From positions 1 to 49,675 of IMG/VR virus record IMGVR_UViG_3300043447_000138: a DNA stretch of 49,675 nt, one strand, 5' to 3'. The notes beneath the pieces are model-generated. The model searched no databases. It saw only the letters and a list, made by a program, of their open reading frames with translations, and was not told the origin of the DNA. The position numbers and the translations under genes were made by a program. Below, one piece after another: positions 12,038-26,187 of the stretch. Each line of letters begins with the position of its first letter. The stretch's first letter is position 1. Source of the stretch: a virus (taxonomy: Duplodnaviria; Caudoviricetes).

Positions 12038-13807
12038 TTATTTGTATTGTTGTTCGACCATCTCGGTCCATTTTCTTTCACTGCCTTGGCCCATCAATCG
12101 CTGACCTCTGCTATTATCTATGACTGCCTGATTCTCATAAACTGACTTTACTTTGTAGAATGGTGCATCAATGTATGAACGATTCACATACAATGCTACC
12201 TTCGCACCGCTCTCAACAATAACATTCACGTTACGTTGCTCAATAAGGTCTTCCATCGTTACTTCATAGACGGGTAGAGGAGGACCCTTACTTGCCTGCT
12301 GTGGCTTCCTATCTTCTACTTCACCTCTACTCACCGGCTCAGGAGCAACTTCAACGATTTTATTTACGCCCGGTAAGAATTGACCAGAGCCAATCATAGC
12401 TAATGATTGCGGAGCAGCCGATACTGGAGTTGCTTGTGTCGTCTGCTCTGCCTTGAATGTACCGGACACATCTGTTGAGTTTGATACTGATGAAATATTT
12501 ACTACCTCGTTGTCAAACTTAGTGATGCCATAGTCGACCTTTTCTGTAAACTGTTGTGTTTGACTGCCGTTCATCTGACTACTACCTACCATAGAGATTG
12601 CGCCCATTCTGTATGAACTGTCCATGCTTCTAGTTGATAATCCCATTGACGGTTGATATGATTGACTAGATGTTACTTGTAAGCCAGTAGCATTAGTAGA
12701 GGGTATACCCATGTCACTAGTGCTCAATGCTACAGGCGCTGGCGGGTAGCCGATGTTTTCGCTATTAGTATTAGTATTAGTATTTGTTTGTGGCGAGACA
12801 TACGCTGTCGGTGCTGGTGGCAATGCCGCTGTAGTAGGTGTAGGAGTGTAAACAACTCTAGGTTGAGCGCCAGTGTTAGCAGTTGATGTTGCGGCCGTAG
12901 CAGTTGATGCTTGTGATTGTCCACCACCTTGATATGTTTGCGTTGTCGATACTGTTGACACTGAACTAGTGGTGTTAGTGGTATCAGTGACGCTAGTGAC
13001 AGGAGTTGGCGCAACTTCAACATTTGATGACGCGCTTGGAATTCTAGCAGTAGTCATCGGTGCTATCACAGAAGGAGCACTATAAGTAGTAGTCACGGGT
13101 GCCACACTCAAACGCTTGAGAGCATCTAAGTAGCCGCTACAGTTAGAACGAGCAAGTGGGTTGATTGAACACTCATCCATAGAGTACTTGAGTCTGAATG
13201 AGATAGAGCCTACTTCAGGGCCGTAGTAACCCCACCAGTTGCCGTTATAGTCTTGACCAGTGAAGCCAAACTTAGCAGTTGATAACAGTGATGATTCGTA
13301 TGGTGTTGTGAATGTCTTATTGACACCGAACCAGCGCCATCCACTAGAGTTCCATGCTAAGTTGTAGTTGTCTTGTACGATTGCGCGGTTATTCTTGTCG
13401 TAGATGTTGACATAAGCAGTTAGCCAATCAGTAGCGGCATTGTCCCAGTGGTTACCGTTCTTCCAGTTGAAGCCGTATTCATAGCCAGTTACTTGAACGT
13501 TAGGTAGTGCTCGAGGAATATTGACCGTCTGTGATACGTTTGTGTATTGTACACCAAAGTTCAATTCACTAGAGCCGTTCACAGCGACACCCGGAGCATA
13601 AGCACCGTAGTTACCGTTACTCAAAGATGGATAGAAGTTTGTACCAGTAGGACTTTGCCAACCAGTATTGTAGCTATTAGACCCAGCACCATACACAGAC
13701 AAGTCACCAGTATAACTAGTGACTGGCTGAGCATTAGAAACCGAAGAGCTTATAGATAGCAATACCAAGCAGAGTGCCCGCGCCAACTTTCTTGTAGGTA
13801 TCATCAT
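12038..13807 (-). CDS. Secreted Ser/Thr-rich protein with N-terminal beta-rich domain
   Basis: Signal-peptide-like start; S/T/P low-complexity linker; overlaps upstream gene by 74 bp. Confidence 0.7.
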   Translation of the reverse strand: MMIPTRKLARALCLVLLSISSSVSNAQPVTSYTGDLSVYGAGSNSYNTGWQSPTGTNFYPSLSNGNYGAYAPGVAVNGSSELNFGVQYTNVSQTVNIPRALPNVQVTGYEYGFNWKNGNHWDNAATDWLTAYVNIYDKNNRAIVQDNYNLAWNSSGWRWFGVNKTFTTPYESSLLSTAKFGFTGQDYNGNWWGYYGPEVGSISFRLKYSMDECSINPLARSNCSGYLDALKRLSVAPVTTTYSAPSVIAPMTTARIPSASSNVEVAPTPVTSVTDTTNTTSSVSTVSTTQTYQGGGQSQASTATAATSTANTGAQPRVVYTPTPTTAALPPAPTAYVSPQTNTNTNTNSENIGYPPAPVALSTSDMGIPSTNATGLQVTSSQSYQPSMGLSTRSMDSSYRMGAISMVGSSQMNGSQTQQFTEKVDYGITKFDNEVVNISSVSNSTDVSGTFKAEQTTQATPVSAAPQSLAMIGSGQFLPGVNKIVEVAPEPVSRGEVEDRKPQQASKGPPLPVYEVTMEDLIEQRNVNVIVESGAKVALYVNRSYIDAPFYKVKSVYENQAVIDNSRGQRLMGQGSERKWTEMVEQQYK

Positions 13808-14873
13808 CTTTTACTTCCTCAATTTTAGGAATCTTGTGTGGGTTAGCATCCCATTGTGCTTTAGCTTGAGCACCGATAACACCATCATAAGGGCATGGTG
13901 TGCCAGCTGCCATCATAGCGTCAAACACACGACGATCTTGACACATTGTAGAGATAGCGGCTACCTTCATACCCATATCGTAAAGTGTCTTACTCAACTT
14001 CAAGCGTTCGCAATTCATATCACGAACTGTGCCGCCGCTACTTACACCTAGAATCTGAGTTTGAACAGCGCCACTAGTACCTGTTGTACATAGGTCGTTA
14101 TTGCCGCCACTCATCATAGCAGGAGCAACAGCAGTTGGCGGTGGCTGAATCACACGCTGAGTAATATCAGAAGTATTGATATTACGGTTAGTCATCTCGC
14201 CTGATTGAATATTCTGATTCACGTTGTTAGATGTACTAGTGTTAGTGTTGACGTTATTATTAGCATTGGTGTTGTTGCTAGTAGTAGCGTTGTTATTGTT
14301 GTACGTCATGGTGCCACTGTTGACGTTGTTGTTATTGAACGTCTGAGTACCACTATTGATGTTAGTGTTTGTATTGTTAGTAGTAGCCGTACTAGTATTC
14401 ACATTATTGTTCGTGTTCGTATTGGTACTAGTGCTAGTATTCAAATTCGTATTGTTGTTGGTATTTGTATTAGTACTTGTACTAGTGTTTAGATTAGTAT
14501 TGTTGTTGGTATTGGTGTTAGTACTTGTACTGGTGTTTAAGTTAGTGTTGTTGTTGGTATTTGTATTTGTATTTGTATTAACATTCGTATTTGTGTTAGT
14601 ACTGGTACTGGTGTTCAAGTTAGTATTTGTGTTGGTATTCGTACTAGTGGCTGTGCTAGTAGAAGTGTTGGTATTTGTGTTGGTATTGGTATTTGTGGTC
14701 GTACCAGTGCTAACCACGTTATTATTGATGGTGGATGTGCCGCTGTTGATGTTATTGACGGTACTAGTGCTGGTGGAGTTAGTGTCCACGAGACTCTTTG
14801 TGTCATAGACAGTTTGCGCTTGGATGCTGCCAAGCACAGACACCAAAGCGCCTGCTAAGATTAGCTTTTTCAT
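13734..14873 (-). CDS. Secreted Asn/Thr-repeat protein with conserved Cys-containing C-terminal domain
   Basis: MKKLIL signal peptide; PP.A.AP...DLC...D.NCERLKL.K.LYD.GMKVAA...CQD.RV..AM..AGTPCP. Confidence 0.8.
   Translation of the reverse strand: MKKLILAGALVSVLGSIQAQTVYDTKSLVDTNSTSTSTVNNINSGTSTINNNVVSTGTTTNTNTNTNTNTSTSTATSTNTNTNTNLNTSTSTNTNTNVNTNTNTNTNNNTNLNTSTSTNTNTNNNTNLNTSTSTNTNTNNNTNLNTSTSTNTNTNNNVNTSTATTNNTNTNINSGTQTFNNNNVNSGTMTYNNNNATTSNNTNANNNVNTNTSTSNNVNQNIQSGEMTNRNINTSDITQRVIQPPPTAVAPAMMSGGNNDLCTTGTSGAVQTQILGVSSGGTVRDMNCERLKLSKTLYDMGMKVAAISTMCQDRRVFDAMMAAGTPCPYDGVIGAQAKAQWDANPHKIPKIEEVKDDDTYKKVGAGTLLGIAIYKLFGF
14230..14780 (-). repeat. Coding Asn/Thr tandem repeats (TNTNTNNNTNLNTSTS units)
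   Basis: Three exact 16-aa units plus degenerate copies; synonymous codons vary. Confidence 0.85.
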
Positions 14874-18049: not shown

Positions 18050-18589
18050 ATGAAAACAGTAGGCGATAAACTAGCACCATTTGCTATCACCGGCGTTAAG
18101 CCAGGACAACCAGAAGATGCTTTCTTCACTATTACCGATCAAAGTTTTGAAGGTAAGTGGAAAGTTATTGTGTACTATCCAAAGGACTTTACATTCGTAT
18201 GTCCAACTGAAATCGTAGCATACGATAAGTTAGCAGGCGATTTTGCTGACCGTGATGCTGTCTTACTAACAGGTAGTACAGACAATGAGTTCTGTAAAGT
18301 AGCGTGGCAAAAAGCACACCCTGATCTACAGAAGATTACTCACACTCAATTCGCTGACACACAACGCGGTGAGTTGTCACTAATTGAACAGCTAGGTGTA
18401 TTCTATGCTCCAGCAGGCGCGGCTCTACGTGCTACATTCATCGTTGACCCTAACAATGAAATTCAACACGTTACTGTTAACAACCTAAACGTTGGTCGTT
18501 CACCAGAAGAAACCTTACGAGTACTAGACGCCCTACAAACCGGCGAACTATGTGCCTGTAACCGTACCGTCGGCGGCGAGACACTATAA
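18050..18589 (+). CDS. ahpC: Peroxiredoxin (alkyl hydroperoxide reductase C)
   Basis: YPKDFTFVCPTEI, RATFIVDP, GR...E.LR..DALQT.ELC. Confidence 0.95.
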   Translation: MKTVGDKLAPFAITGVKPGQPEDAFFTITDQSFEGKWKVIVYYPKDFTFVCPTEIVAYDKLAGDFADRDAVLLTGSTDNEFCKVAWQKAHPDLQKITHTQFADTQRGELSLIEQLGVFYAPAGAALRATFIVDPNNEIQHVTVNNLNVGRSPEETLRVLDALQTGELCACNRTVGGETL

Positions 18590-19242
18590 TGTTAGAGACC
18601 ATCTGCGAAACTCTAGTCGAAGCATACAGGCGAAACTGGATAACCAGCCGCGATGGTAATGTTAGCATACGACACCATGATCGTGATCATTTCTATATCA
18701 CGCCGTCGGGTGTCCGTAAGCAGACCTTACAGCCTGATCAATTTAAAAAGATCAAATTAGTTAGTCATATAAACCCGGCACCACCTTTTTTAACAAAATC
18801 ATGGCAAGAGGATTTCTATACTGATATCAGTGCTAATCTAAAGCCTAGTGGTGAGATACCTCTACACTTTGGATTACAGCGAGAGATGGGACAACACCGA
18901 AATGAAGTACGAGTAGTGGTTCATGTTCATCCCACATACTGTATCGCGGCAATGCATGCTGGTATTGACCTGAGTACAATCAGTGATTCTTTTCCTGAAC
19001 TCAATCGTTACACTCGTGTAGCACCTAACGTTGGTGATGTTCCGCCTATTTCTCAAGAGCTTGCTGATCGTTGTCATGAAAATCTAAAGTTAGATAAAGA
19101 AGGCAATATCGCTTATGACATTGTTGGTATCAAAGGTCACGGTGTGGTAGCTATCGACACTAGTCCATGGCGGGCATTTGAGCATATCGAACGACTCGAA
19201 CATATTTGTAAAATCGTACTAGCTAGTGGAGCATATCGATGA
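18589..19242 (+). CDS. Class II aldolase/adducin family protein
   Basis: DGNVS, ITPSG, PS.E..LH, VVHVHP, GHGV. Confidence 0.9.
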   Translation: MLETICETLVEAYRRNWITSRDGNVSIRHHDRDHFYITPSGVRKQTLQPDQFKKIKLVSHINPAPPFLTKSWQEDFYTDISANLKPSGEIPLHFGLQREMGQHRNEVRVVVHVHPTYCIAAMHAGIDLSTISDSFPELNRYTRVAPNVGDVPPISQELADRCHENLKLDKEGNIAYDIVGIKGHGVVAIDTSPWRAFEHIERLEHICKIVLASGAYR

Positions 19243-19652
19243 TAGAGTGTCTTATCGTAGGTGACAGCATTGCTGTGGGTACCGCACGGGCAAGACCCGA
19301 ATGTATTGCTTATGCTCGGGGCGGCTGGAATAGTTGGCAATGGAACAAAGACTATCTAGCCTCCGCGATTCAGCACAATGCTAAAACCGTAATCATCAGT
19401 TTAGGTGCTAATGATCACCGCGGTGTGAAGACAGAACAGGAACTACGCCGTATGCGTCAGGCTATACAGGGCACTCGTGTGTTTTGGATAGATCCAGGCG
19501 CCCATCGTAAACCTATTCCGCACGATGCTATAGTTCGTATTGCCGCTGAATATGGAGATACAATTCTGCCACGACCGGCTGGTCATATGAGTGCCGATGG
19601 GGTACACCCAACAGGACGTGGTTATAAAATATTAGGAGAACAAACAAAATGA
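19239..19652 (+). CDS. SGNH/GDSL hydrolase
   Basis: GDSI, SLGAND, DGVHP..GY. Confidence 0.85.
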   Translation: MIECLIVGDSIAVGTARARPECIAYARGGWNSWQWNKDYLASAIQHNAKTVIISLGANDHRGVKTEQELRRMRQAIQGTRVFWIDPGAHRKPIPHDAIVRIAAEYGDTILPRPAGHMSADGVHPTGRGYKILGEQTK

Positions 19653-20167
19653 CACAATGGGTTGACGCTCTAAAAGAGCAAAGTATTCCAGACTACGCAA
19701 AAGATACCAGACTCAATATCGATGCTGTCATCAAGCGTAGTACACTACCTGTCGAAGAGGCAGAGGCAGTTGCTTTAGCGGCTGCTTTTGCTACGGGCAA
19801 CAGTAAACTATGGACATGGATTCATAGTCAACTAGTGGATCGTAAGGAAGCAGATGCGGCACTCACAGCGGCATCAATCATGGCACAAAACAACACGTGG
19901 TATCCATACGTTGAGATGGCCGATGACGAGCAACTAAAGGGTTTACCAGCACAACTACGTATGAACGCTATCGCTACTCACGGTGGTACTACCAAGGCAC
20001 GTTTTGAAGCATACTCACTAGCTGCCTCTATTGTTGGTAAGTGTCACTTCTGCGTGAAAGCTCACTACGAGACCCTCAAGAAGGAAGGCTATAGTGTAGA
20101 GCAACTACGTGATATCGGTCGCATTGCGGCAGTTATGACTAGTGTAGCTAGAGTAGTAGCTAACTAA
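19649..20167 (+). CDS. ahpD: Alkyl hydroperoxide reductase D (CMD family)
   Basis: PDYAKD..LN, MAQNN.WY, E...LA.S..GKCHFCV..H. Confidence 0.92.
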   Translation: MTQWVDALKEQSIPDYAKDTRLNIDAVIKRSTLPVEEAEAVALAAAFATGNSKLWTWIHSQLVDRKEADAALTAASIMAQNNTWYPYVEMADDEQLKGLPAQLRMNAIATHGGTTKARFEAYSLAASIVGKCHFCVKAHYETLKKEGYSVEQLRDIGRIAAVMTSVARVVAN

Positions 20168-20202
20168 TTTTCCTAGACCTGCTATCCGTGCTAAGTAAGC
20201 GC

Positions 20203-20325
20203 ATGATAGCAGAAGTCTTTTTATACGGGTTCATAACAGCGTTTGGTTGGTGGTCAGCCAATCACTATGTTATTGAACCCTATTTTCCGCCTCCAATTGA
20301 GCGCAAGGTAGATGACCACAAATGA
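20203..20325 (+). CDS. Small hypothetical protein (40 aa)
   Basis: Hand-translated MIAEVFLYGFITAFGWW...; ATGA coupling to next gene. Confidence 0.5.
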   Translation: MIAEVFLYGFITAFGWWSANHYVIEPYFPPPIERKVDDHK

Positions 20326-20570
20326 TGTCTTGGGTATCTACATTCGCAGCCATCTTCCTACTTGATATTGTCTATACCTATTACCTACGCTGTATAGCAA
20401 ACAATCAAGTGATGGGCGCTAGCCTATGGAGTGTTGCTTGCTATATGTTAGGTAGCTACGCTGTCATCGAATACACATCAAATAATCTACTAATGATTCC
20501 CGCTATGCTTGGTGCGTTTTGTGGCACCTATGTCGGCATGAAACTCAAGACTACAAATGAATCTAACTGA
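20322..20570 (+). CDS. Small membrane protein
   Basis: Three hydrophobic segments; GAF.GTY.G. Confidence 0.7.
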   Translation: MMSWVSTFAAIFLLDIVYTYYLRCIANNQVMGASLWSVACYMLGSYAVIEYTSNNLLMIPAMLGAFCGTYVGMKLKTTNESN

Positions 20571-21369
20571 TATCACCACTAAGGGCTATGTTGTTCTGCG
20601 CAACTTCCTAGATGAAGGCGATGTAAATTGCTTGATTGGTGGTTATAAACAGTCCATAGATAATAGAGGCTTTAATAAAAACTATGGCGTAGTGTCTAGC
20701 AAAACAGACCACAATCTAGAATATAAAATACACCCGTTGCTTTCAAACATTAGAGAGGTAAGCGACCTAACAGTTGATATGTGCTACAAAGGAGGTATGT
20801 ACTTTCGTTCAGAAAGTATAGACTTCAAATGGCATCAAGACCACGAGACTTACTATCTAACTCAACAAGCAACAAACGCAATAAATTTATGGCTACCGTT
20901 AATCAAACCTGATAGAAGTAATACAGGACTGTCGATTGTTCCATTTGATAAGTTAGGCACTAGTCTAAAACATTTCTTGGGTTTTGGAGCAAGAAACATT
21001 AGCATCATCGATTCTAGTACTATTACTGTAGAGGATTGTGAGAACGGCGACAACTTTGAACTAAGTTGTGATATTGAATCCCTAGCAGTTAATCCTGAAA
21101 TTGGACCTCGTGATGTTCTTATCATGAGAGGTGATACCTTACATAGAACACAAGATACCAAGAATGATCGATTAGCTATGTCTATCAGATGCTTTGATAG
21201 TCGTGATGTTATTAGTAGAGACAAATTCTACAGTGGATGTCAGCACAAGCATACAATGATAAGCAACAATCCCAGACTGTATCAATCACTAATTGACAAA
21301 TTCACTCTGACTGAATCAGTATTTGTTGGTGATATCTTACCTCATCATAAGTTCGTTAGTAAACTCTAA
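20557..21369 (+). CDS. PhyH-like 2OG-Fe(II) dioxygenase
   Basis: GYVVL.NFL, WHQD, NLW.PL, D.LHR, R...SIR. Confidence 0.8.
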   Translation: MNLTDITTKGYVVLRNFLDEGDVNCLIGGYKQSIDNRGFNKNYGVVSSKTDHNLEYKIHPLLSNIREVSDLTVDMCYKGGMYFRSESIDFKWHQDHETYYLTQQATNAINLWLPLIKPDRSNTGLSIVPFDKLGTSLKHFLGFGARNISIIDSSTITVEDCENGDNFELSCDIESLAVNPEIGPRDVLIMRGDTLHRTQDTKNDRLAMSIRCFDSRDVISRDKFYSGCQHKHTMISNNPRLYQSLIDKFTLTESVFVGDILPHHKFVSKL

Positions 21370-21972
21370 GAGTAAGTTGCCCTGTGGTCGATACTTGCCC
21401 TTCAACCAACTATAACTGTCATACCAAAATTGTTCGCTCTCGGGGTGACAGCCGATCAAGCCTATTCTGTCCTGAAATATAGCCATTGAATCGCCGTTAG
21501 CGTATCTGGCGACTGTCTCATAGTTACCAGGACCGACTAGAGCACAACCATCATAGAAGAACATCCTGTCTTTGGTGCCGCGCCATTCGATATCAATGTT
21601 CTTGGCGTGTGGTCTGCGAGTATCAGTATTGGGTTGTTTGATATATTGGACAGCGTCTACACCTCTAAGTATGTTGAAGTAGTGACTGCCTGCCCAGTAA
21701 GCGCCCATACAGATGCCTAAGTACCTGCCACCACGCATTAGGAAGCTCTCCACTGCGTTTTTATTAGACTTTAGTAGGGTGCCAAAGCTATCACTGTCTC
21801 CGATGCCTCCAGGGAAGGCCACGATGTCCACATCATCAAAGAATCCGTCTTCCATTTCGTTTTTTGAGAATAGTCTGAAGTCATAGTGATCGGACAATGC
21901 CGCAATCATCCCGTTCGCACATTGAACCGAGCACTTTGGGTCATAGATGAATAAGGCTATCTTTGGTTTCAC
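21337..21972 (-). CDS. BPL_N-like class I glutamine amidotransferase domain protein
   Basis: FPGG.G, GGRYLGICMGAY, G.HPE. Confidence 0.8.
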   Translation of the reverse strand: MKPKIALFIYDPKCSVQCANGMIAALSDHYDFRLFSKNEMEDGFFDDVDIVAFPGGIGDSDSFGTLLKSNKNAVESFLMRGGRYLGICMGAYWAGSHYFNILRGVDAVQYIKQPNTDTRRPHAKNIDIEWRGTKDRMFFYDGCALVGPGNYETVARYANGDSMAIFQDRIGLIGCHPESEQFWYDSYSWLKGKYRPQGNLLLEFTNELMMR

Positions 21973-21997
21973 GTGGGTATTTAGTTGTCCAAAAAAG

Positions 21998-22026
21998 TTG
22001 ACTTACGATAGTTTGAGATATATAAT
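21998..22026 (+). promoter_or_regulatory. Sigma70-type promoter for tRNA and downstream genes
   Basis: TTGACT-17-TATAAT, 8 nt before tRNA 5' end. Confidence 0.8.
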
Positions 22027-22034
22027 AGTGACAT

Positions 22035-22110
22035 GCGCTAGATTCTCAATGGCTGAGTAGGCGATTCTAAACCGCTGTTTGTGTGGGTTCGATTCCCACC
22101 TAGCGCACCA
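22035..22110 (+). tRNA. tRNA with CUA anticodon (amber suppressor)
   Basis: Acceptor GCGCTAG/CTAGCGC, T arm GTGGG-TTCGATT-CCCAC, encoded CCA; anticodon arm GGCGA-TTCTAAA-CCGCT centres CTA at 22067-22069. Confidence 0.85.
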
Positions 22111-22131
22111 TTTAACTTAAAGGAAATTAAA

Positions 22132-22695
22132 ATGTCAATGTAGATCCAGTATCAATGTAAAGAGCTAGTGTTTCACTTCAACAAGAAACATCTAGAAGAC
22201 CCCCAAATCCCTATGTGGGTAATCAAGACACACGGAGTAACCTTCTACGTCAATCACGTATCAGCGGACATTCCATGGTCAACAAAAGAAACGCCTGACA
22301 ATACGCATACTAAGGGAAGTATCAAGTTCAAGCGATGTAAACTGATTCTCGACCCAGAGAATAACGCAACAGTTACAAGTCTCGGTCTATTAGACAAAAC
22401 CCTACCATCACCTAAAGGTAAGCATACACGATTGCTTATGAGAGAAGGCTCGACCTTGTTAGAAGCCCTGCGAAACAATGAGTTCAAACACACCGAGTTC
22501 AAGGAAGTTGTTGGTGCTTGCCACACTGAGTTTGTCATCTGTGATATGACGGATGAACTTGAGGTTACTATTGCTCTACTCAAGTACAGCGGCGGATATC
22601 GTATCCTTTCTCCTAACGAACACTACTATCAAGTGTACGACACAAAGCAGTCATGGATCGATGCTATTTTTGAGGATGACGAGGATGACGAATAA
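22132..22695 (+). CDS. Hypothetical protein with in-frame TAG at codon 4 (amber readthrough candidate)
   Basis: AAGGA RBS, ATG TCA ATG TAG ATC CAG TAT CAA TGT AAA GAG CTA GTG, in frame with track ORF 22168..22695. Confidence 0.7.
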
Positions 22696-22719
22696 ATAAA
22701 CTCACTAAGGAGAATTTAT

Positions 22720-22947
22720 ATGGATATGGATCAAGCAGCCGTCTTTTTGGCAGGCAGTATTTTAACAGCAATGGGTATGATTGTGTTTGTGATTGCTATG
22801 GTAGTCATCAACAATATCATTCACAAATACTGGAAGCCACTAGGTTGGTTCAAATGGAGCGAAAGTATGTTCGGCCCAGTACACTATGTTGAACAAGAAA
22901 AAGTACCTCCTAGTTTAGAGCCAGAGGATACAAAGAAGAAGCGTTAA
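22720..22947 (+). CDS. Small membrane protein
   Basis: AAGGAG RBS; one TM. Confidence 0.7.
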   Translation: MDMDQAAVFLAGSILTAMGMIVFVIAMVVINNIIHKYWKPLGWFKWSESMFGPVHYVEQEKVPPSLEPEDTKKKR

Positions 22948-23144
22948 CGCTTTCGAGTGGGGGTGTCGGGCTTAGACCACTCCCACTCCATAATGTACAT
23001 AGTCTCAAGCGTATCGTTTCTAAATTCTATTTCGATACCCTTGAGACCACCTGTAAAATCCCAATCACGACCGCGTTCACCGTGAGCACGAAGCCACTTC
23101 AATACAGTAACGTTATCTGTTGCTCTAAACTTTCTTGTTCTCAT
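22944..23144 (-). CDS. LRW-family small protein (divergent)
   Basis: W....G..G..W...F.N....Y...W; coupled start in junction motif. Confidence 0.65.
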   Translation of the reverse strand: MRTRKFRATDNVTVLKWLRAHGERGRDWDFTGGLKGIEIEFRNDTLETMYIMEWEWSKPDTPTRKR

Positions 23145-23563
23145 AACCACCTCAATGCGAATAAGGTATTGTCAATGTCATTAGTAAATGCTACTACAAT
23201 ATAGTCACCGCCGCCCAGTTCATCTATTTGCCACCCATCATCTCTTCGCCACTCTTCATCTTTCTTTGACATTCTGTGCCAGTCTAAGCGATAGTGACCT
23301 GTTAGATTTGCTTCACACCATTTGTCTAATACGTAAACTCCATCAACACCTATGTCCCAGAAATACGCTTCGTGCTTGTGGTTCGTAATCACGTGATACG
23401 ACTTGTAGCCATGATAGAATGATGGCAGTGTACTAGCACTCCATCTTATACGCTTGTCGAAGTTTCTGTTATACTCTTTCCAACTGTCACACAGGTGCTT
23501 AGCGAGAAAACGCTTAGACTTGTACATACGCCACGCGGCTCTAATTCTTCCCAGTAACATCAT
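23141..23563 (-). CDS. LRW-family protein
   Basis: WC..N..G...FTNDIDNTLFALRWL. Confidence 0.75.
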   Translation of the reverse strand: MMLLGRIRAAWRMYKSKRFLAKHLCDSWKEYNRNFDKRIRWSASTLPSFYHGYKSYHVITNHKHEAYFWDIGVDGVYVLDKWCEANLTGHYRLDWHRMSKKDEEWRRDDGWQIDELGGGDYIVVAFTNDIDNTLFALRWL

Positions 23564-23777
23564 ACTTCAATCTGAACCAAGTTGCCCATTCTTCTGAGTA
23601 GAATGTGTACTCGCAATAGCCGCTACGTTGACGCAACCAGTCCATCTCATCAGTCTCAGGTCTGTGCCACTTAAAGTCAAAGTCAATACCTTGAACAAGT
23701 CCTTGATCTCTAAGGTCATAGATGACTGTTAGCGCATCATTAACATTATCATAGTCTATTAGTACTGTATCTAACAT
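23541..23777 (-). CDS. LRW-family protein (FRLKY variant, TAG stop)
   Basis: FYSEEWATWFRLKY. Confidence 0.7.
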   Translation of the reverse strand: MLDTVLIDYDNVNDALTVIYDLRDQGLVQGIDFDFKWHRPETDEMDWLRQRSGYCEYTFYSEEWATWFRLKYDVTGKN

Positions 23778-23998
23778 GCCCACATCAATCTAAAAAGGGT
23801 TGCGTCTGTGTCTTGCTCAAACAACCAGTACTGACCAGTGCCTATCCAATCACTACCGATATTAGTATCGACCCACTCATATAAGATTTCATTGACCGCG
23901 CTTTCGACTGAAATTGACACTTCCTGCCATCCTTGCGCTCTGCGTTTATAATACGTTTCCCAGAATTCTGGCGCATATGATAAGCCTTCGTATCTCAT
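23771..23998 (-). CDS. LRW-family protein (TAG stop)
   Basis: FEQDTDATLFRLMWA. Confidence 0.75.
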   Translation of the reverse strand: MRYEGLSYAPEFWETYYKRRAQGWQEVSISVESAVNEILYEWVDTNIGSDWIGTGQYWLFEQDTDATLFRLMWAC

Positions 23999-24009
23999 GC
24001 CCACCTCAA
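23995..24009 (-). repeat. 15-bp gene-junction repeat TTGAGGTGGGCATGA
   Basis: Exact copies also at 24201, 39368, 40073, 40321. Confidence 0.9.
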
Positions 24010-24204
24010 AGCAAATAGCACTAAGTCTTGTTCTTTTTTGAAGTGAAATTCACTTTCACCAAATTGAGTAGTGATATACCACTTAGAGTTGCCTGTTATT
24101 AGATAGCCGCCGTCACCCAGGTTGTCTCTACACCAACGTTGAATATCAGATAGCTCATGATATCTGCGTTTTGAAATGTGTGCTATGTGTTGAAATGTTT
24201 TCAT
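23995..24204 (-). CDS. LRW-family protein
   Basis: WCRDNLG...FKKEQDLVLFALRWA. Confidence 0.75.
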   Translation of the reverse strand: MKTFQHIAHISKRRYHELSDIQRWCRDNLGDGGYLITGNSKWYITTQFGESEFHFKKEQDLVLFALRWA

Positions 24205-24446
24205 GCCCACCTCAAAATGAATAAGGTCAAATCACTTTCGTTTTTGAATCGGTACACGCTACGAGAAAAGTAGTGCTCAACTGCCCATATGTCTCGTTTG
24301 AGTGTGTCTTTACACCATTCGTGTGCGTCGATAGTTCTATCGTCGAATCTTATCCAGTTATCGTCATCTTCTCGTCTTGTGAGTTCTATTGTATGAATAA
24401 GCGTGGCTTGTCTTCTGTTTTCTCGTCTGCGTTGTTTACTGTTCAT
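24201..24446 (-). CDS. LRW-family protein
   Basis: WCKD...FKNESDLTLFILRWA. Confidence 0.75.
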   Translation of the reverse strand: MNSKQRRRENRRQATLIHTIELTRREDDDNWIRFDDRTIDAHEWCKDTLKRDIWAVEHYFSRSVYRFKNESDLTLFILRWA

Positions 24447-24658
24447 AGCCATCTCAACATGAATAGGAGTAGTTGCTCTTCCGTTTCAAAAATAAATTCA
24501 TAACCTTCCTTGTGTCCTCGCCAGAAACATGCCCAACTGCCGTTACGTTCAATAGCTGACCATCTCTCACCAAATGTTTCTTCACACCAATGAGTGATTT
24601 CGACTCCCATTCGCTTGGTGTAGTAAACTGAGTGATTGAGGTCTCGCCTTATGCCCAT
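24443..24658 (-). CDS. LRW-family protein
   Basis: WCEETFG...FETEEQLLLFMLRWL. Confidence 0.7.
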   Translation of the reverse strand: MGIRRDLNHSVYYTKRMGVEITHWCEETFGERWSAIERNGSWACFWRGHKEGYEFIFETEEQLLLFMLRWL

Positions 24659-24876
24659 TGTAAAATGAATAGGGTTAGCGTGTCGTCATCAGGAATGTTT
24701 ACAGTCATACCTAATACCTCACTGCGATTGTCTCGGCACCATGCCACGAGGTCCTCGTAGCGACTGTTCCAATAAGCGATATCTGATAAAAGAACAAGAT
24801 GATCAAAACTATCTTCATAGTCGTTTTCCGTTACAATAAATCTTTTCTGGTTCCAATTGTCCATTACAACCGACAT
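24649..24876 (-). CDS. LRW-family protein
   Basis: WCRDN...DDDTLTLFILQWA. Confidence 0.7.
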   Translation of the reverse strand: MSVVMDNWNQKRFIVTENDYEDSFDHLVLLSDIAYWNSRYEDLVAWCRDNRSEVLGMTVNIPDDDTLTLFILQWA

Positions 24877-24877
24877 A

Positions 24878-25081
24878 CTAGCCCCAACGTAACTCAAAGT
24901 GTGTTACGTCACGCTCGTCGTCAAACTCAAACTCATACACGCCAGCACTGTAGCCAGCTTGCTCTTGTACGGTTACTAAGTCCCAGTTACCGACGCAGAA
25001 TTCACCGCACCAGTCTAAGACTTCATCTAGACCGCCGTACTTGACAAAGACAGTGACCTTATGGTCAGACTTGATTGCCAA
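24878..25081 (-). CDS. LRW-family protein (TAG stop)
   Basis: WCGEFCVGNW...FDDERDVTHFELRWG. Confidence 0.75.
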   Translation of the reverse strand: MAIKSDHKVTVFVKYGGLDEVLDWCGEFCVGNWDLVTVQEQAGYSAGVYEFEFDDERDVTHFELRWG

Positions 25082-25514
25082 TTTTGTTTACCTCAACGCC
25101 GCTGGTTTGGAGAAATTTAACTCCATAATCATCACGATATTGAGTGCCATAATACACACGGCGAATACCTGACTGAAGGATAAGTTTGGCACAGTCGATA
25201 CAAGGTGCGTGAGTGATAAAAATATCAGCGTTAAGACCGCTGTTGCTACTCTTAGCCAATTTACTAACCGCGTTGCTTTCTGCATGGAGGACCTCCGGTT
25301 TTGTTTTTAGAGTCTTGACGAATTTCTCGTCCATCTCTACTGTGATTTCATCTTCACAGTTATTGTCCCAGCCACTGGGCATACCATTGTAACCATAGCT
25401 GATGACAGTATCATCTTTAACGATGACCGCGCCTACTTGAAGGCGTCTAGCATGGCTGAGTTTCGCTAAGCGTAGTGCCCAGTCCATATAAAGGTCGATG
25501 AATTTTTGTTTCAT
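25065..25514 (-). CDS. dCMP deaminase
   Basis: VGAVIV, GYNG.P.G, HAE.NA, PC..C. Confidence 0.93.
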   Translation of the reverse strand: MKQKFIDLYMDWALRLAKLSHARRLQVGAVIVKDDTVISYGYNGMPSGWDNNCEDEITVEMDEKFVKTLKTKPEVLHAESNAVSKLAKSSNSGLNADIFITHAPCIDCAKLILQSGIRRVYYGTQYRDDYGVKFLQTSGVEVNKIGNQV

Positions 25515-25753
25515 GTCAATCCGTAGTTATCTCTTATCCATCGTTCCGAAATATTTTTATCTTTGAAATAGTAGAGTGAAGTTGGTGCTAATATTCCAAA
25601 GTGATCACAGAACGCTTCGCCGTATCTTTTGTTTTGTAAGATTGCTAGTGTCCAGTGTACTTCTTTGAACTCGTCATACTCCTCTTGAGTAATCACATTC
25701 ATTTTTCTGCTAAGTTCGGCAGATGTAAGTATGTTCACCATTTGATCAAACAT
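25511..25753 (-). CDS. Hypothetical protein
   Basis: RYG.AFC..F motif; coupled ORF. Confidence 0.65.
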   Translation of the reverse strand: MFDQMVNILTSAELSRKMNVITQEEYDEFKEVHWTLAILQNKRYGEAFCDHFGILAPTSLYYFKDKNISERWIRDNYGLT

Positions 25754-26187
25754 TATAGAGACTCTTTGATTACACCATCAATCACATATAGTTTTTGTTT
25801 TTCTGGTGTAATGATACAGCAGTCTTTTTTGTTCTTTGCTAGAAAGTTTTGAACCGCTTCCTGTCTAGATGTTCCTTGACACAAGAACTCACCTTTGTGA
25901 GTATAGAAGTAGTGTGAGCCATTCTCAATATGCTCGTCTATGATTTCAAACTTTAACTTGCGCAGGGCGTCATCAATCATAGCATCTGCCTTAGCATCGT
26001 CTTTAGGATCTAGTTGCTCAAGTTGAGTTTGTAGTTTGTACATTTCTTCAACTTCTTCATCTGTCAACAAGTCCATCATGCGACGAATCATCTTGTTCTC
26101 AGCGTAACGCATACCAGCATAGAATACGATTGCGTATCCCACAAGCATTGCTAATGTGTCCCACATTGTCCATTCAGTCATGTTCAA
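25753..26187 (-). CDS. Hypothetical protein with N-terminal TM
   Basis: Coupled ORF; FLCQG motif. Confidence 0.7.
   Translation of the reverse strand: MNMTEWTMWDTLAMLVGYAIVFYAGMRYAENKMIRRMMDLLTDEEVEEMYKLQTQLEQLDPKDDAKADAMIDDALRKLKFEIIDEHIENGSHYFYTHKGEFLCQGTSRQEAVQNFLAKNKKDCCIITPEKQKLYVIDGVIKESL

Follow-up and report, generated by a model that had tools for sequence, protein, structure and literature searches.

The window, which is the whole 49.7-kb stretch of DNA analysed here, is a fragment of a large freshwater phage (CheckV completeness 14%) encoding a family B polymerase, and the datasets carrying its DNA are freshwater metagenomes, with no RNA dataset among them. The locus of interest, on the plus strand, begins with a predicted sigma70-type promoter (TTGACT-17-TATAAT, 21998–22026; 11 of 12 matches), the best of 23 promoter-like sites in the interval 19000–26000, and both hexamers are unchanged in L001, a relative 96% identical to the window. 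The promoter is predicted to drive both a 76-nt tRNA gene of the amber-suppressor type (22035–22110; ARAGORN, and Rfam RF00005 with 40.1 bits) and the protein-coding gene behind it. The tRNA, the only one within the window, belongs to class I and has the anticodon CUA, an encoded CCA, G1-C72, A73 and an A31.C39 mismatch. A Shine-Dalgarno (SD) sequence AAGGA (22120–22124) is placed 7 nt ahead of an ATG at 22132, itself 21 nt past the CCA of the tRNA, and the fourth codon of this frame is a TAG (22141–22143) followed by ATC, together referred to as the gate (22141–22146). Beyond the TAG the frame is open to a TAA at 22693–22695, resulting in a gene of 187 codons if the TAG is read (22132–22695), which belongs to a family, here called FHFNK, with 1259 database relatives. 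The promoter, the tRNA with its anticodon and the placement of SD, ATG and in-frame TAG had all been proposed in a sequence-only reading of the same DNA, and each was borne out.

The gated gene is followed by a gene for a small predicted membrane protein (22720–22947), possibly co-transcribed with it; this family is found in 13 of 97 neighbourhoods and is not a fixed partner of the gated gene. Two hairpins past the membrane protein gene, between convergent genes (22940–22992), mark a possible terminator region. Further on, the minus strand carries several short genes in succession whose C-terminal motifs are alike (…F….D..LF.L.W; 23141–25081), probably a paralog array. Genes for a peroxiredoxin and for class II aldolase-like, GDSL-like and AhpD/CMD proteins are found at 18050–20167, and the peroxiredoxin family is the commonest neighbour of gated loci (28 of 97). 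A secreted-looking protein with a long Thr/Asn repeat, encoded on the minus strand at 13734–14873, matches phrog_20531.

Authenticity and conservation of the early TAG

Contigs from four of four runs (from four studies, one of them possibly the source of the window) cross positions 22141–22143 and show no other letter there, and L001 retains both the tRNA and the TAG. An assembly error as the source of the TAG is thereby ruled out; the check on reads that had been proposed for this position was made on assembly contigs rather than raw reads, and all four runs agree on TAG.

Relatives of the gated gene within reach of word-based searches were fetched from IMG/VR, metagenomes, genomes and cultured phages, as the best 80 of 392 and the best 80 of 554 matches; they are 44–98% identical to the window and include close kin, so the counts given below do not represent independent events. 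Each of the first 20 loci had an ATG followed by an early in-frame TAG, and the pattern is much too frequent, there and in the widest set, to be due to chance. Among the best matches fetched there were 186 distinct gene variants, of which 171 were called gated by script, 13 ungated and two at a contig edge. When resolved by hand, the 13 comprised one gated gene (L401, ML(TAG)ML), six genes behind a gated Pth2 or Pth2-like gene, five behind a leader and one, L242, in which no gate was visible, so that of the 184 genes that could be classified 172 have a TAG in frame near their own start, 11 follow an upstream gene or leader that carries the stop, and one is ungated. TAA or TGA at the gate position was absent from all 13 rows. 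On a quick tree with weak support (176 core domains, 76 columns) the script's ungated label needs seven changes, and the ungated state may have one origin. The three matches in cellular genome contigs all lie on short contigs from MAGs, carry the gate as well and are probably phage DNA.

In 165 of the 171 gated relatives the ATG was SD-backed (with a spacing of 6–8 nt in 147) and the TAG was codon 2–10, mostly 3–5. Nearby synonymous sites are split among the same relatives (TTT/TTC 94/77, CAC/CAT 91/80), and TAG is the terminal stop in only one of 161 genes of the gated family. The residue ahead of the TAG takes ten different values, and the TAG lies 7–14 codons from the FHFN motif, occupying a Tyr position in eight genes; because its position shifts in this way, no fixed residue appears to be needed there. 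The base after the gate TAG is A in 168 and the next two bases are AT in 158 of the 171, compared to 23 and five of the 81 TAG codons that really end genes in the window and four genomes; the 158 genes have ATT, ATC or ATA after the TAG, and the other 13 have AAT, AAC, GTA or CAA. A 3' A favours amber suppression. A study of the +4 context did not, in the text available from it, show a 3' A favouring suppression of bacterial UAG (PMC5289835). The comparison among relatives indicates that selection acts on the UAG itself.

The homologs align upstream of VFHFNK, as had been anticipated, with Tyr7 and Cys9 conserved in at least 90%. Two database proteins show Gln at position 4 (P0002 and P0134). 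P0134 is the DNA of L001 read with its TAG as Q, and both are therefore probably gene-caller output (P0134 was matched to its DNA, P0002 was compared as a protein); a sense codon in close relatives was accordingly rejected.

The window uses code 11, with six of 92 codon-scored genes ending in TAG, and in four complete relatives TAG ends 10–24 of the 402–500 genes per genome, with 81–87% coding in code 11. We collected 386 read-through extensions from these four genomes and the window, 258 of which have a homolog in another record; for genes with homologs among the five records, a conserved in-frame TAG was convincing only for the FHFNK family, and a conserved extension past a terminal TAG was found for none of 19 TAG-ending genes. 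One other aligned TAG pair (G001 119278 / G003 121271) resembles a shadow frame. A separate scan for an SD, an ATG and an early TAG returned 28 rows, with the FHFNK gene having the clearest SD in each genome. Among genes with homologs in these records, in-frame TAGs across many genes of a genome or block were not seen in the four relatives or the window, and the view that the genome is not globally recoded thus held, TAG still being a true stop in 10–24 genes per genome.

The suppressor tRNA and the spread of the gate

A CUA tRNA is found in the locus of 140 of the 171 gated genes, and of 101 of the 107 with at least 2.9 kb of upstream sequence, in line with the earlier prediction that homologs keep the early TAG (171 of 186 gated) and adjoin such a tRNA. 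In the reverse direction, a pattern scan gave at least 119 tRNA loci (about 300 exist); 99 of those listed were CUA, 83 of them distinct. Among the listed CUA tRNAs flanked by 3.5 kb on both sides, the gene was found within 4 kb in 28 of 45 and was not nearby in 17 of 45. Three of 20 CUA records without the gene nearby carry the family further off, including two of five near-complete ones; because the remaining three of the five near-complete CUA-tRNA genomes tested are without the gated family, the tRNA does not appear to be dedicated to it. Four complete genomes of 352–374 kb have one CUA tRNA each, outside the main tRNA cluster and 36 nt, 133 nt, 1.65 kb or 4.7 kb from the gene, and in Atu_ph07 the tRNA is more than 200 kb away. 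The idea of a local two-part switch thus stands in that gate and tRNA are linked, but not in its strict locality, as the tRNA may sit kilobases from the gene.

The CUA tRNAs share a YUCUAAA loop (75 of 81), A73 (74 of 81) and a 31.39 mismatch (58 of 81; the 81 include one false regex hit), as well as G1-C72 (78 of 79). Phosso carries two CUA tRNAs and Atu_ph07 a UCA tRNA; the latter phage has a gene resembling tRNA-Tyr whose anticodon arm carries an insert (L183, ~1400–1560), and for which ARAGORN makes no call. Genes for tmRNA are often near gated loci. Profile searches with the synthetase families PF01409, PF00749 and PF00152 gave no match in any of five complete genomes, the GlnRS family included, a control for the PF01409 search having matched in 14 of 14. 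As the three tested families are missing from the phage genomes, the suppressor tRNA is likely charged by a host enzyme; going by tRNA identity rules, Lys or Gln would be a tentative guess for the residue and synthetase.

ARAGORN labels the tRNA as tRNA-Pyl from the anticodon alone. A tRNA-Pyl has a short D-loop without GG, no T-psi-C and a 6-pair anticodon stem; here an ordinary GG D-loop, a GTTCG T-loop and a 5-pair anticodon stem are found, and the assignment was rejected. In the cultured Rhizobium phage RHph_I1_18 the gated gene (L178, 2478–2726; MSEFM(TAG)NES…) is unannotated and ends 11 nt before an annotated CUA tRNA, which is labelled tRNA-Pyl in GenBank.

The gate is also found on other genes. 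At L041, L397, L439 and L271 it heads a Pth2-like gene upstream of the FHFNK family gene, in the forms ML(TAG)I, MS(TAG)I and MK(TAG)I, and at three of these loci a gene for a helical protein sits between the two. In Phosso and Atu_ph07 the core domain of the family is fused behind a helical protein, two genes after a gated Pth2. GenBank begins the Pth2 of these phages at an internal Met (Phosso, L179 1384–1878; Atu_ph07, L180 1432–1881), and SD-backed starts precede an early TAG in Phosso (MKY(TAG)) and an early TGA in Atu_ph07 (MIGEHF(TGA)). A helical family of ~95 aa ('EY.AWR..WK..Y') without a Pfam name adjoins gated Pth2-like genes (L041 3721–4005, L178 3453–3836, L290, L301 and L270) and is also found fused to the core domain.

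The gated proteins of L290, Phosso and Atu_ph07 score above the PTH2 cut-off of Pfam, and those of L041 (E 0.024), L397 (E 0.0015) and L297 fall below it; the Pth2-like proteins of L041 and L397 may not be hydrolases. An alignment-based scan for Pth2-like genes gave 20 rows, corresponding to 18 distinct loci once one duplicate and one non-hit were dropped, of which 16 have a TAG near the start, with a CUA tRNA no more than 3 kb away in 11 of them, one has an early TGA and one is ungated; single-sequence scans for Pth2 relatives gave two and one loci. Gated Pth2 or Pth2-like genes are likewise borne by CUA loci without the FHFNK family (L290, L297, L268 and L270). No PF01981 (PTH2) was found in the window, and a PTH2 Pfam match is absent from six near-complete genomes carrying the gated gene, which may reflect replacement; in G010, however, a divergent Pth2-like gene escaped the PTH2 profile, and the gated gene and Pth2 occur together in RHph_I1_18.

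In five relatives from three lineages (L227, L239, L236, L258 and L283) an ATG-x-TAG leader is followed by a terminator-like hairpin with a U-rich tail. The leader hairpins have z values of -1.8 to -3.8 against mononucleotide shuffles, and the leaders have weak SD sites. Immediately behind the CUA tRNA of L273, L275, L286, L295, L298 and L307 there are short leaders ending in TAG followed by IRPP, and these (TAG)IRPP leaders precede a conserved helical gene (MSIELKIKAKHLALE…).

Stop and anticodon were found to be switched together twice. L487 has a TGA gate on a Pth2-like gene and a UCA tRNA 196 nt upstream, and in Atu_ph07 the TGA gate is paired with the UCA tRNA, described as an opal suppressor (PMC6102473). 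Of the comparative evidence, this joint switch speaks most clearly for the gate being read by the tRNA. As far as the sequences tell, the gate is modular, being placed in the gene itself, on Pth2 or Pth2-like genes, or in attenuator-like leaders, and it is the regulation that appears to be kept.

Domains and predicted role of the FHFNK protein

The AlphaFold model of the gated protein comprises two domains (pLDDT 85.7, pTM 0.60). The N-terminal one is a beta-rich conserved core (about residues 5–90; 22144–22401; pLDDT 94.6 alone) with the invariant motifs F-H-F-N-K, P-x-W, T-K-E-T and N-x-x-T-K-G, in which many invariant polar residues (His, Lys, Asn and Thr) are found, and it also occurs alone, e.g. 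in RHph_I1_18. The C-terminal domain (22417–22653), which is dispensable and missing in L020 and RHph_I1_18, is ferredoxin-like (ACT/RRM-type) with a G-x-C motif; its fold comparison reached Z values up to 5.4 and is not discriminating, with ACT, RRM and ribosome-factor domains tied.

The protein was found to have no Pfam family, no PHROG, no PDB sequence match and no match to the PTH2 sequence profile, and Foldseek returned nothing from the PDB at E ≤ 0.001 for either the whole model or the core. The core matched no known fold (best row Z 3.3, rmsd 3.9, 59 aligned), which is not proof of a new fold, and rows for ADP-ribosyltransferases scored Z 2.1–3.0, below that best row. Matches in a viral structure library were an uncharacterised relative and small unnamed proteins. 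Since neither sequence nor fold gave an informative match, a role can be drawn from the neighbourhood of the gene, and by this association we give slightly less than an even chance to the protein binding tRNA or the ribosome and acting in a rescue pathway. In three database proteins (P0137–P0139) a DUF723 endonuclease-like ORF is inserted in a core motif, between TPDN…T and KGSIKFK, with the core resuming at the C-terminal end; the insert is possibly a homing element, an intron or a bypass insert.

A possible sensor of termination

The comparative tests (TAG kept, CUA tRNA linked) support the earlier view of an amber gate opened by a nearby tRNA, without recoding of the genome as a whole, and in-frame readthrough of the gate by the phage tRNA is highly probable. 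A ribosome starting at 22132 would reach the UAG after three codons, where RF1 would release the tripeptide MSM or the phage tRNA would let translation continue, the ratio of the two outcomes being set by charged suppressor versus active RF1. Somewhat better than even, in our estimate, is the chance that the tRNA is charged by a host synthetase and acts as a calibrated rival of RF1, with output rising when RF1 is scarce, sequestered or inhibited. Weak termination at UAG would then yield more FHFNK protein as stalled ribosomes and peptidyl-tRNA drop-off accumulate, and the protein would help to rescue or recycle stalled translation. The polarity of the attenuator leaders would equal that of the in-gene gate, and an SD-like motif before a Val/Met codon nine codons downstream (64 of 171 relatives) could permit a bypass start.

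Pth2 recycles peptidyl-tRNA from jammed ribosomes, according to the available text of PMC7824862. As the same gate stands before the FHFNK gene or before Pth2 genes in relatives, it is likely to be a switch for predicted rescue proteins. Damage to tRNAs would close the gate and a shortage of RF1 would open it, and since Pth2 is needed in the latter case, we lean towards the conserved TAG gate being a termination sensor that controls rescue factors, in preference to a timer and then to feedback on the tRNA. We know of no RF1 shortage shown during infection by these phages.

The gate might alternatively be a timer or dose limiter without any sensing, tRNA and gene forming a coherent feed-forward loop through which a protein harmful in excess would be made late and low, after processing and charging of the tRNA. 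Such a design is compatible with all conservation data and with the predicted promoter common to tRNA and gene in the window, and an engineered E. coli circuit built in the same way cuts leaky expression of toxic genes (PMC7969014). However, a weaker promoter or ribosome site would limit the dose more simply, yet the strong SD is kept; the attenuator-type leaders and the bias of the cargo to peptidyl-tRNA hydrolases suggest response to a signal; and the tRNA is often kilobases from the gene. We consider a timer unlikely.

Less probable again is a feedback in which the protein acts on the suppressor tRNA, by modifying, charging, protecting or inactivating it, and in this way sets its own readthrough. 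A CUA tRNA is indeed near ten of the 13 family genes classed as without their own TAG, the invariant His, Lys, Asn and Thr of the core resemble those of an active site or of a site that binds RNA, the C-terminal domain is similar to RRM and ACT domains, and no phage synthetase of the three families was found. Against this, like CUA tRNAs occur without the gene (17 of 45 listed loci; three of five near-complete genomes), the protein has no likeness to synthetases or modifying enzymes, and Atu_ph07 pairs the domain with a UCA tRNA instead. Because this gate is also placed on leaders and on Pth2 genes, which are unrelated, the purpose suggested earlier, that the protein matures or charges the tRNA, is not favoured.

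Nor are the two other purposes suggested in the sequence-only reading, a sensor of tRNA integrity and a lock on a toxic product, according to which the protein would be made only with intact tRNAs or only in cells containing the phage tRNA. Both follow from the anatomy of the locus, and host anticodon nucleases are described as a pressure on jumbo phages in the available text of PMC7824862, but an integrity sensor would shut the rescue genes off when tRNAs are damaged, which is the wrong polarity for a Pth2 cargo, and no toxin fold was matched (ADP-ribosyltransferase rows, Z ≤ 3.0); we regard them as quite improbable. It is very unlikely that there is no readthrough, the short ORF being a minigene with a restart at AUU/AUC after the stop or at a downstream GTG. 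The ATT, ATC or ATA after the TAG in 158 of 171 genes, the ATG directly after it in L401 and L495 and the SD-like motif before the Val codon in 64 of 171 would fit such a restart, but a codon used as a genuine stop would be expected to change to TAA or TGA over time, and the only such change goes along with a UCA tRNA; 13 genes have AAT, AAC, GTA or CAA after the TAG, the GTG of the window (22168) is without an SD, a start there removes the first strand with the conserved Tyr and Cys, and the tRNA link is left unexplained. A special, pyrrolysine-like amino acid or an early stage of genome-wide TAG recoding is scarcely credible: the Pyl label given by ARAGORN and the proposal that phages acquire a suppressor before they become recoded (Borges et al., bioRxiv 10.1101/2021.08.26.457843) are countered by the ordinary cloverleaf, by a PF01409 synthetase in none of five genomes, by a TAG that sits in a variable N-terminal tail and moves, and by TAG being a true stop in 10–24 genes per genome with no conserved extension. 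Quadruplet (UAGA) decoding was rejected, as it would shift the frame.

A termination sensor of the kind favoured here can be compared to several known systems. The prfB gene of RF2 relies on a +1 frameshift and an internal SD without a special tRNA, and its product is a release factor; in leader-peptide attenuation the sensed signal is a run of sense codons. Five relatives have an amber leader before a terminator-like hairpin, the sensed codon in contrast being a stop, and the window itself is without a leader of the attenuator type. An early in-frame stop ties expression to weak termination in prfB (at CUU-UGA-C; motif from the available text of PMC5289835) as at the gate, whereas the gate keeps the frame (window and 171 relatives), uses a dedicated tRNA as the rival and has a product that is not a release factor. 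Recoded phages (crAss-like, Lak, Agate and others; code 15/4) likewise use a phage suppressor tRNA in a standard-code host, and it has been proposed that their in-frame stops delay expression up to the point at which the tRNA becomes active, as the gate would (bioRxiv 10.1101/2021.08.26.457843, accessible part). There, many codons across late genes with structural and lysis cargo are involved, in contrast to one 5' codon of one gene or leader per genome, a translation-related or uncharacterised cargo and a TAG that is still a working stop. The engineered 'leak dampener' (PMC7969014, available text) places an amber codon just after the start together with a co-regulated suppressor tRNA, as here, but is synthetic and inducer-driven, whereas the gate is natural and conserved in many phages. 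Judged by its sequence features, the gate resembles regulated readthrough and prfB control, but does not show what defines a recoded phage, a pyrrolysine system or a prfB-type frameshift. In the full-text literature, with few subscription journals covered, no account was found of a standard-code phage in which a single gene is naturally gated by an amber codon, and this stop-codon-based regulation may well be a sensor of a new type.

Suppressor tRNAs have been reported from cultured standard-code jumbo phages, as orphan amber suppressors in XacN1 (PMC5852040) and RsoM2USA (PMC8504454) and as an opal suppressor in Atu_ph07 (PMC6102473). The available text of these reports names no target for them; the authors of XacN1 tested terminal amber stops and found no target of the amber tRNAs (PMC5852040). 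Unlike those terminal stops, the targets proposed here are stops that lie close to the start of a gene, where gene callers conceal them. The FHFNK family had no match in XacN1 or RsoM2USA in a search of the phage collection. The presence of suppressor tRNAs in standard-code jumbo phages, for which no reason is given in the text available on XacN1 (PMC5852040), is thereby provided with a concrete explanation that can be tested, and the gate points to a hidden class of genes that callers truncate or miss, such as the unannotated gated gene of RHph_I1_18 and the mis-started Pth2 of Phosso and Atu_ph07; these three cultured phages make the gate testable.

More tentatively, the suppressor tRNAs of standard-code jumbo phages may be gauges of host release-factor activity, with a portable SD-ATG-x-TAG-AT gate wiring a translation-rescue regulon in three ways (gene, operon head and attenuator leader) and with an FHFNK protein of novel fold that works in rescue or anti-defence and counters an unrecognised host attack on termination. 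Should the sensor reading be true, it would point to host defences acting on termination, offer a natural readthrough biosensor and represent a plausible adaptive first step to whole-genome stop-codon recoding. A separate observation concerns three RF-1-domain genes (L462, L463 and L461, from G003, G004 and G016), which have an in-frame TGA at the same place (…KG(TGA)TSR…, …LG(TGA)TTR… and …LG(TGA)KYQ…), presumably a Trp position. The TGA in these RF-like genes may be a matching device for RF2, making it a possible parallel sensor based on UGA readthrough.
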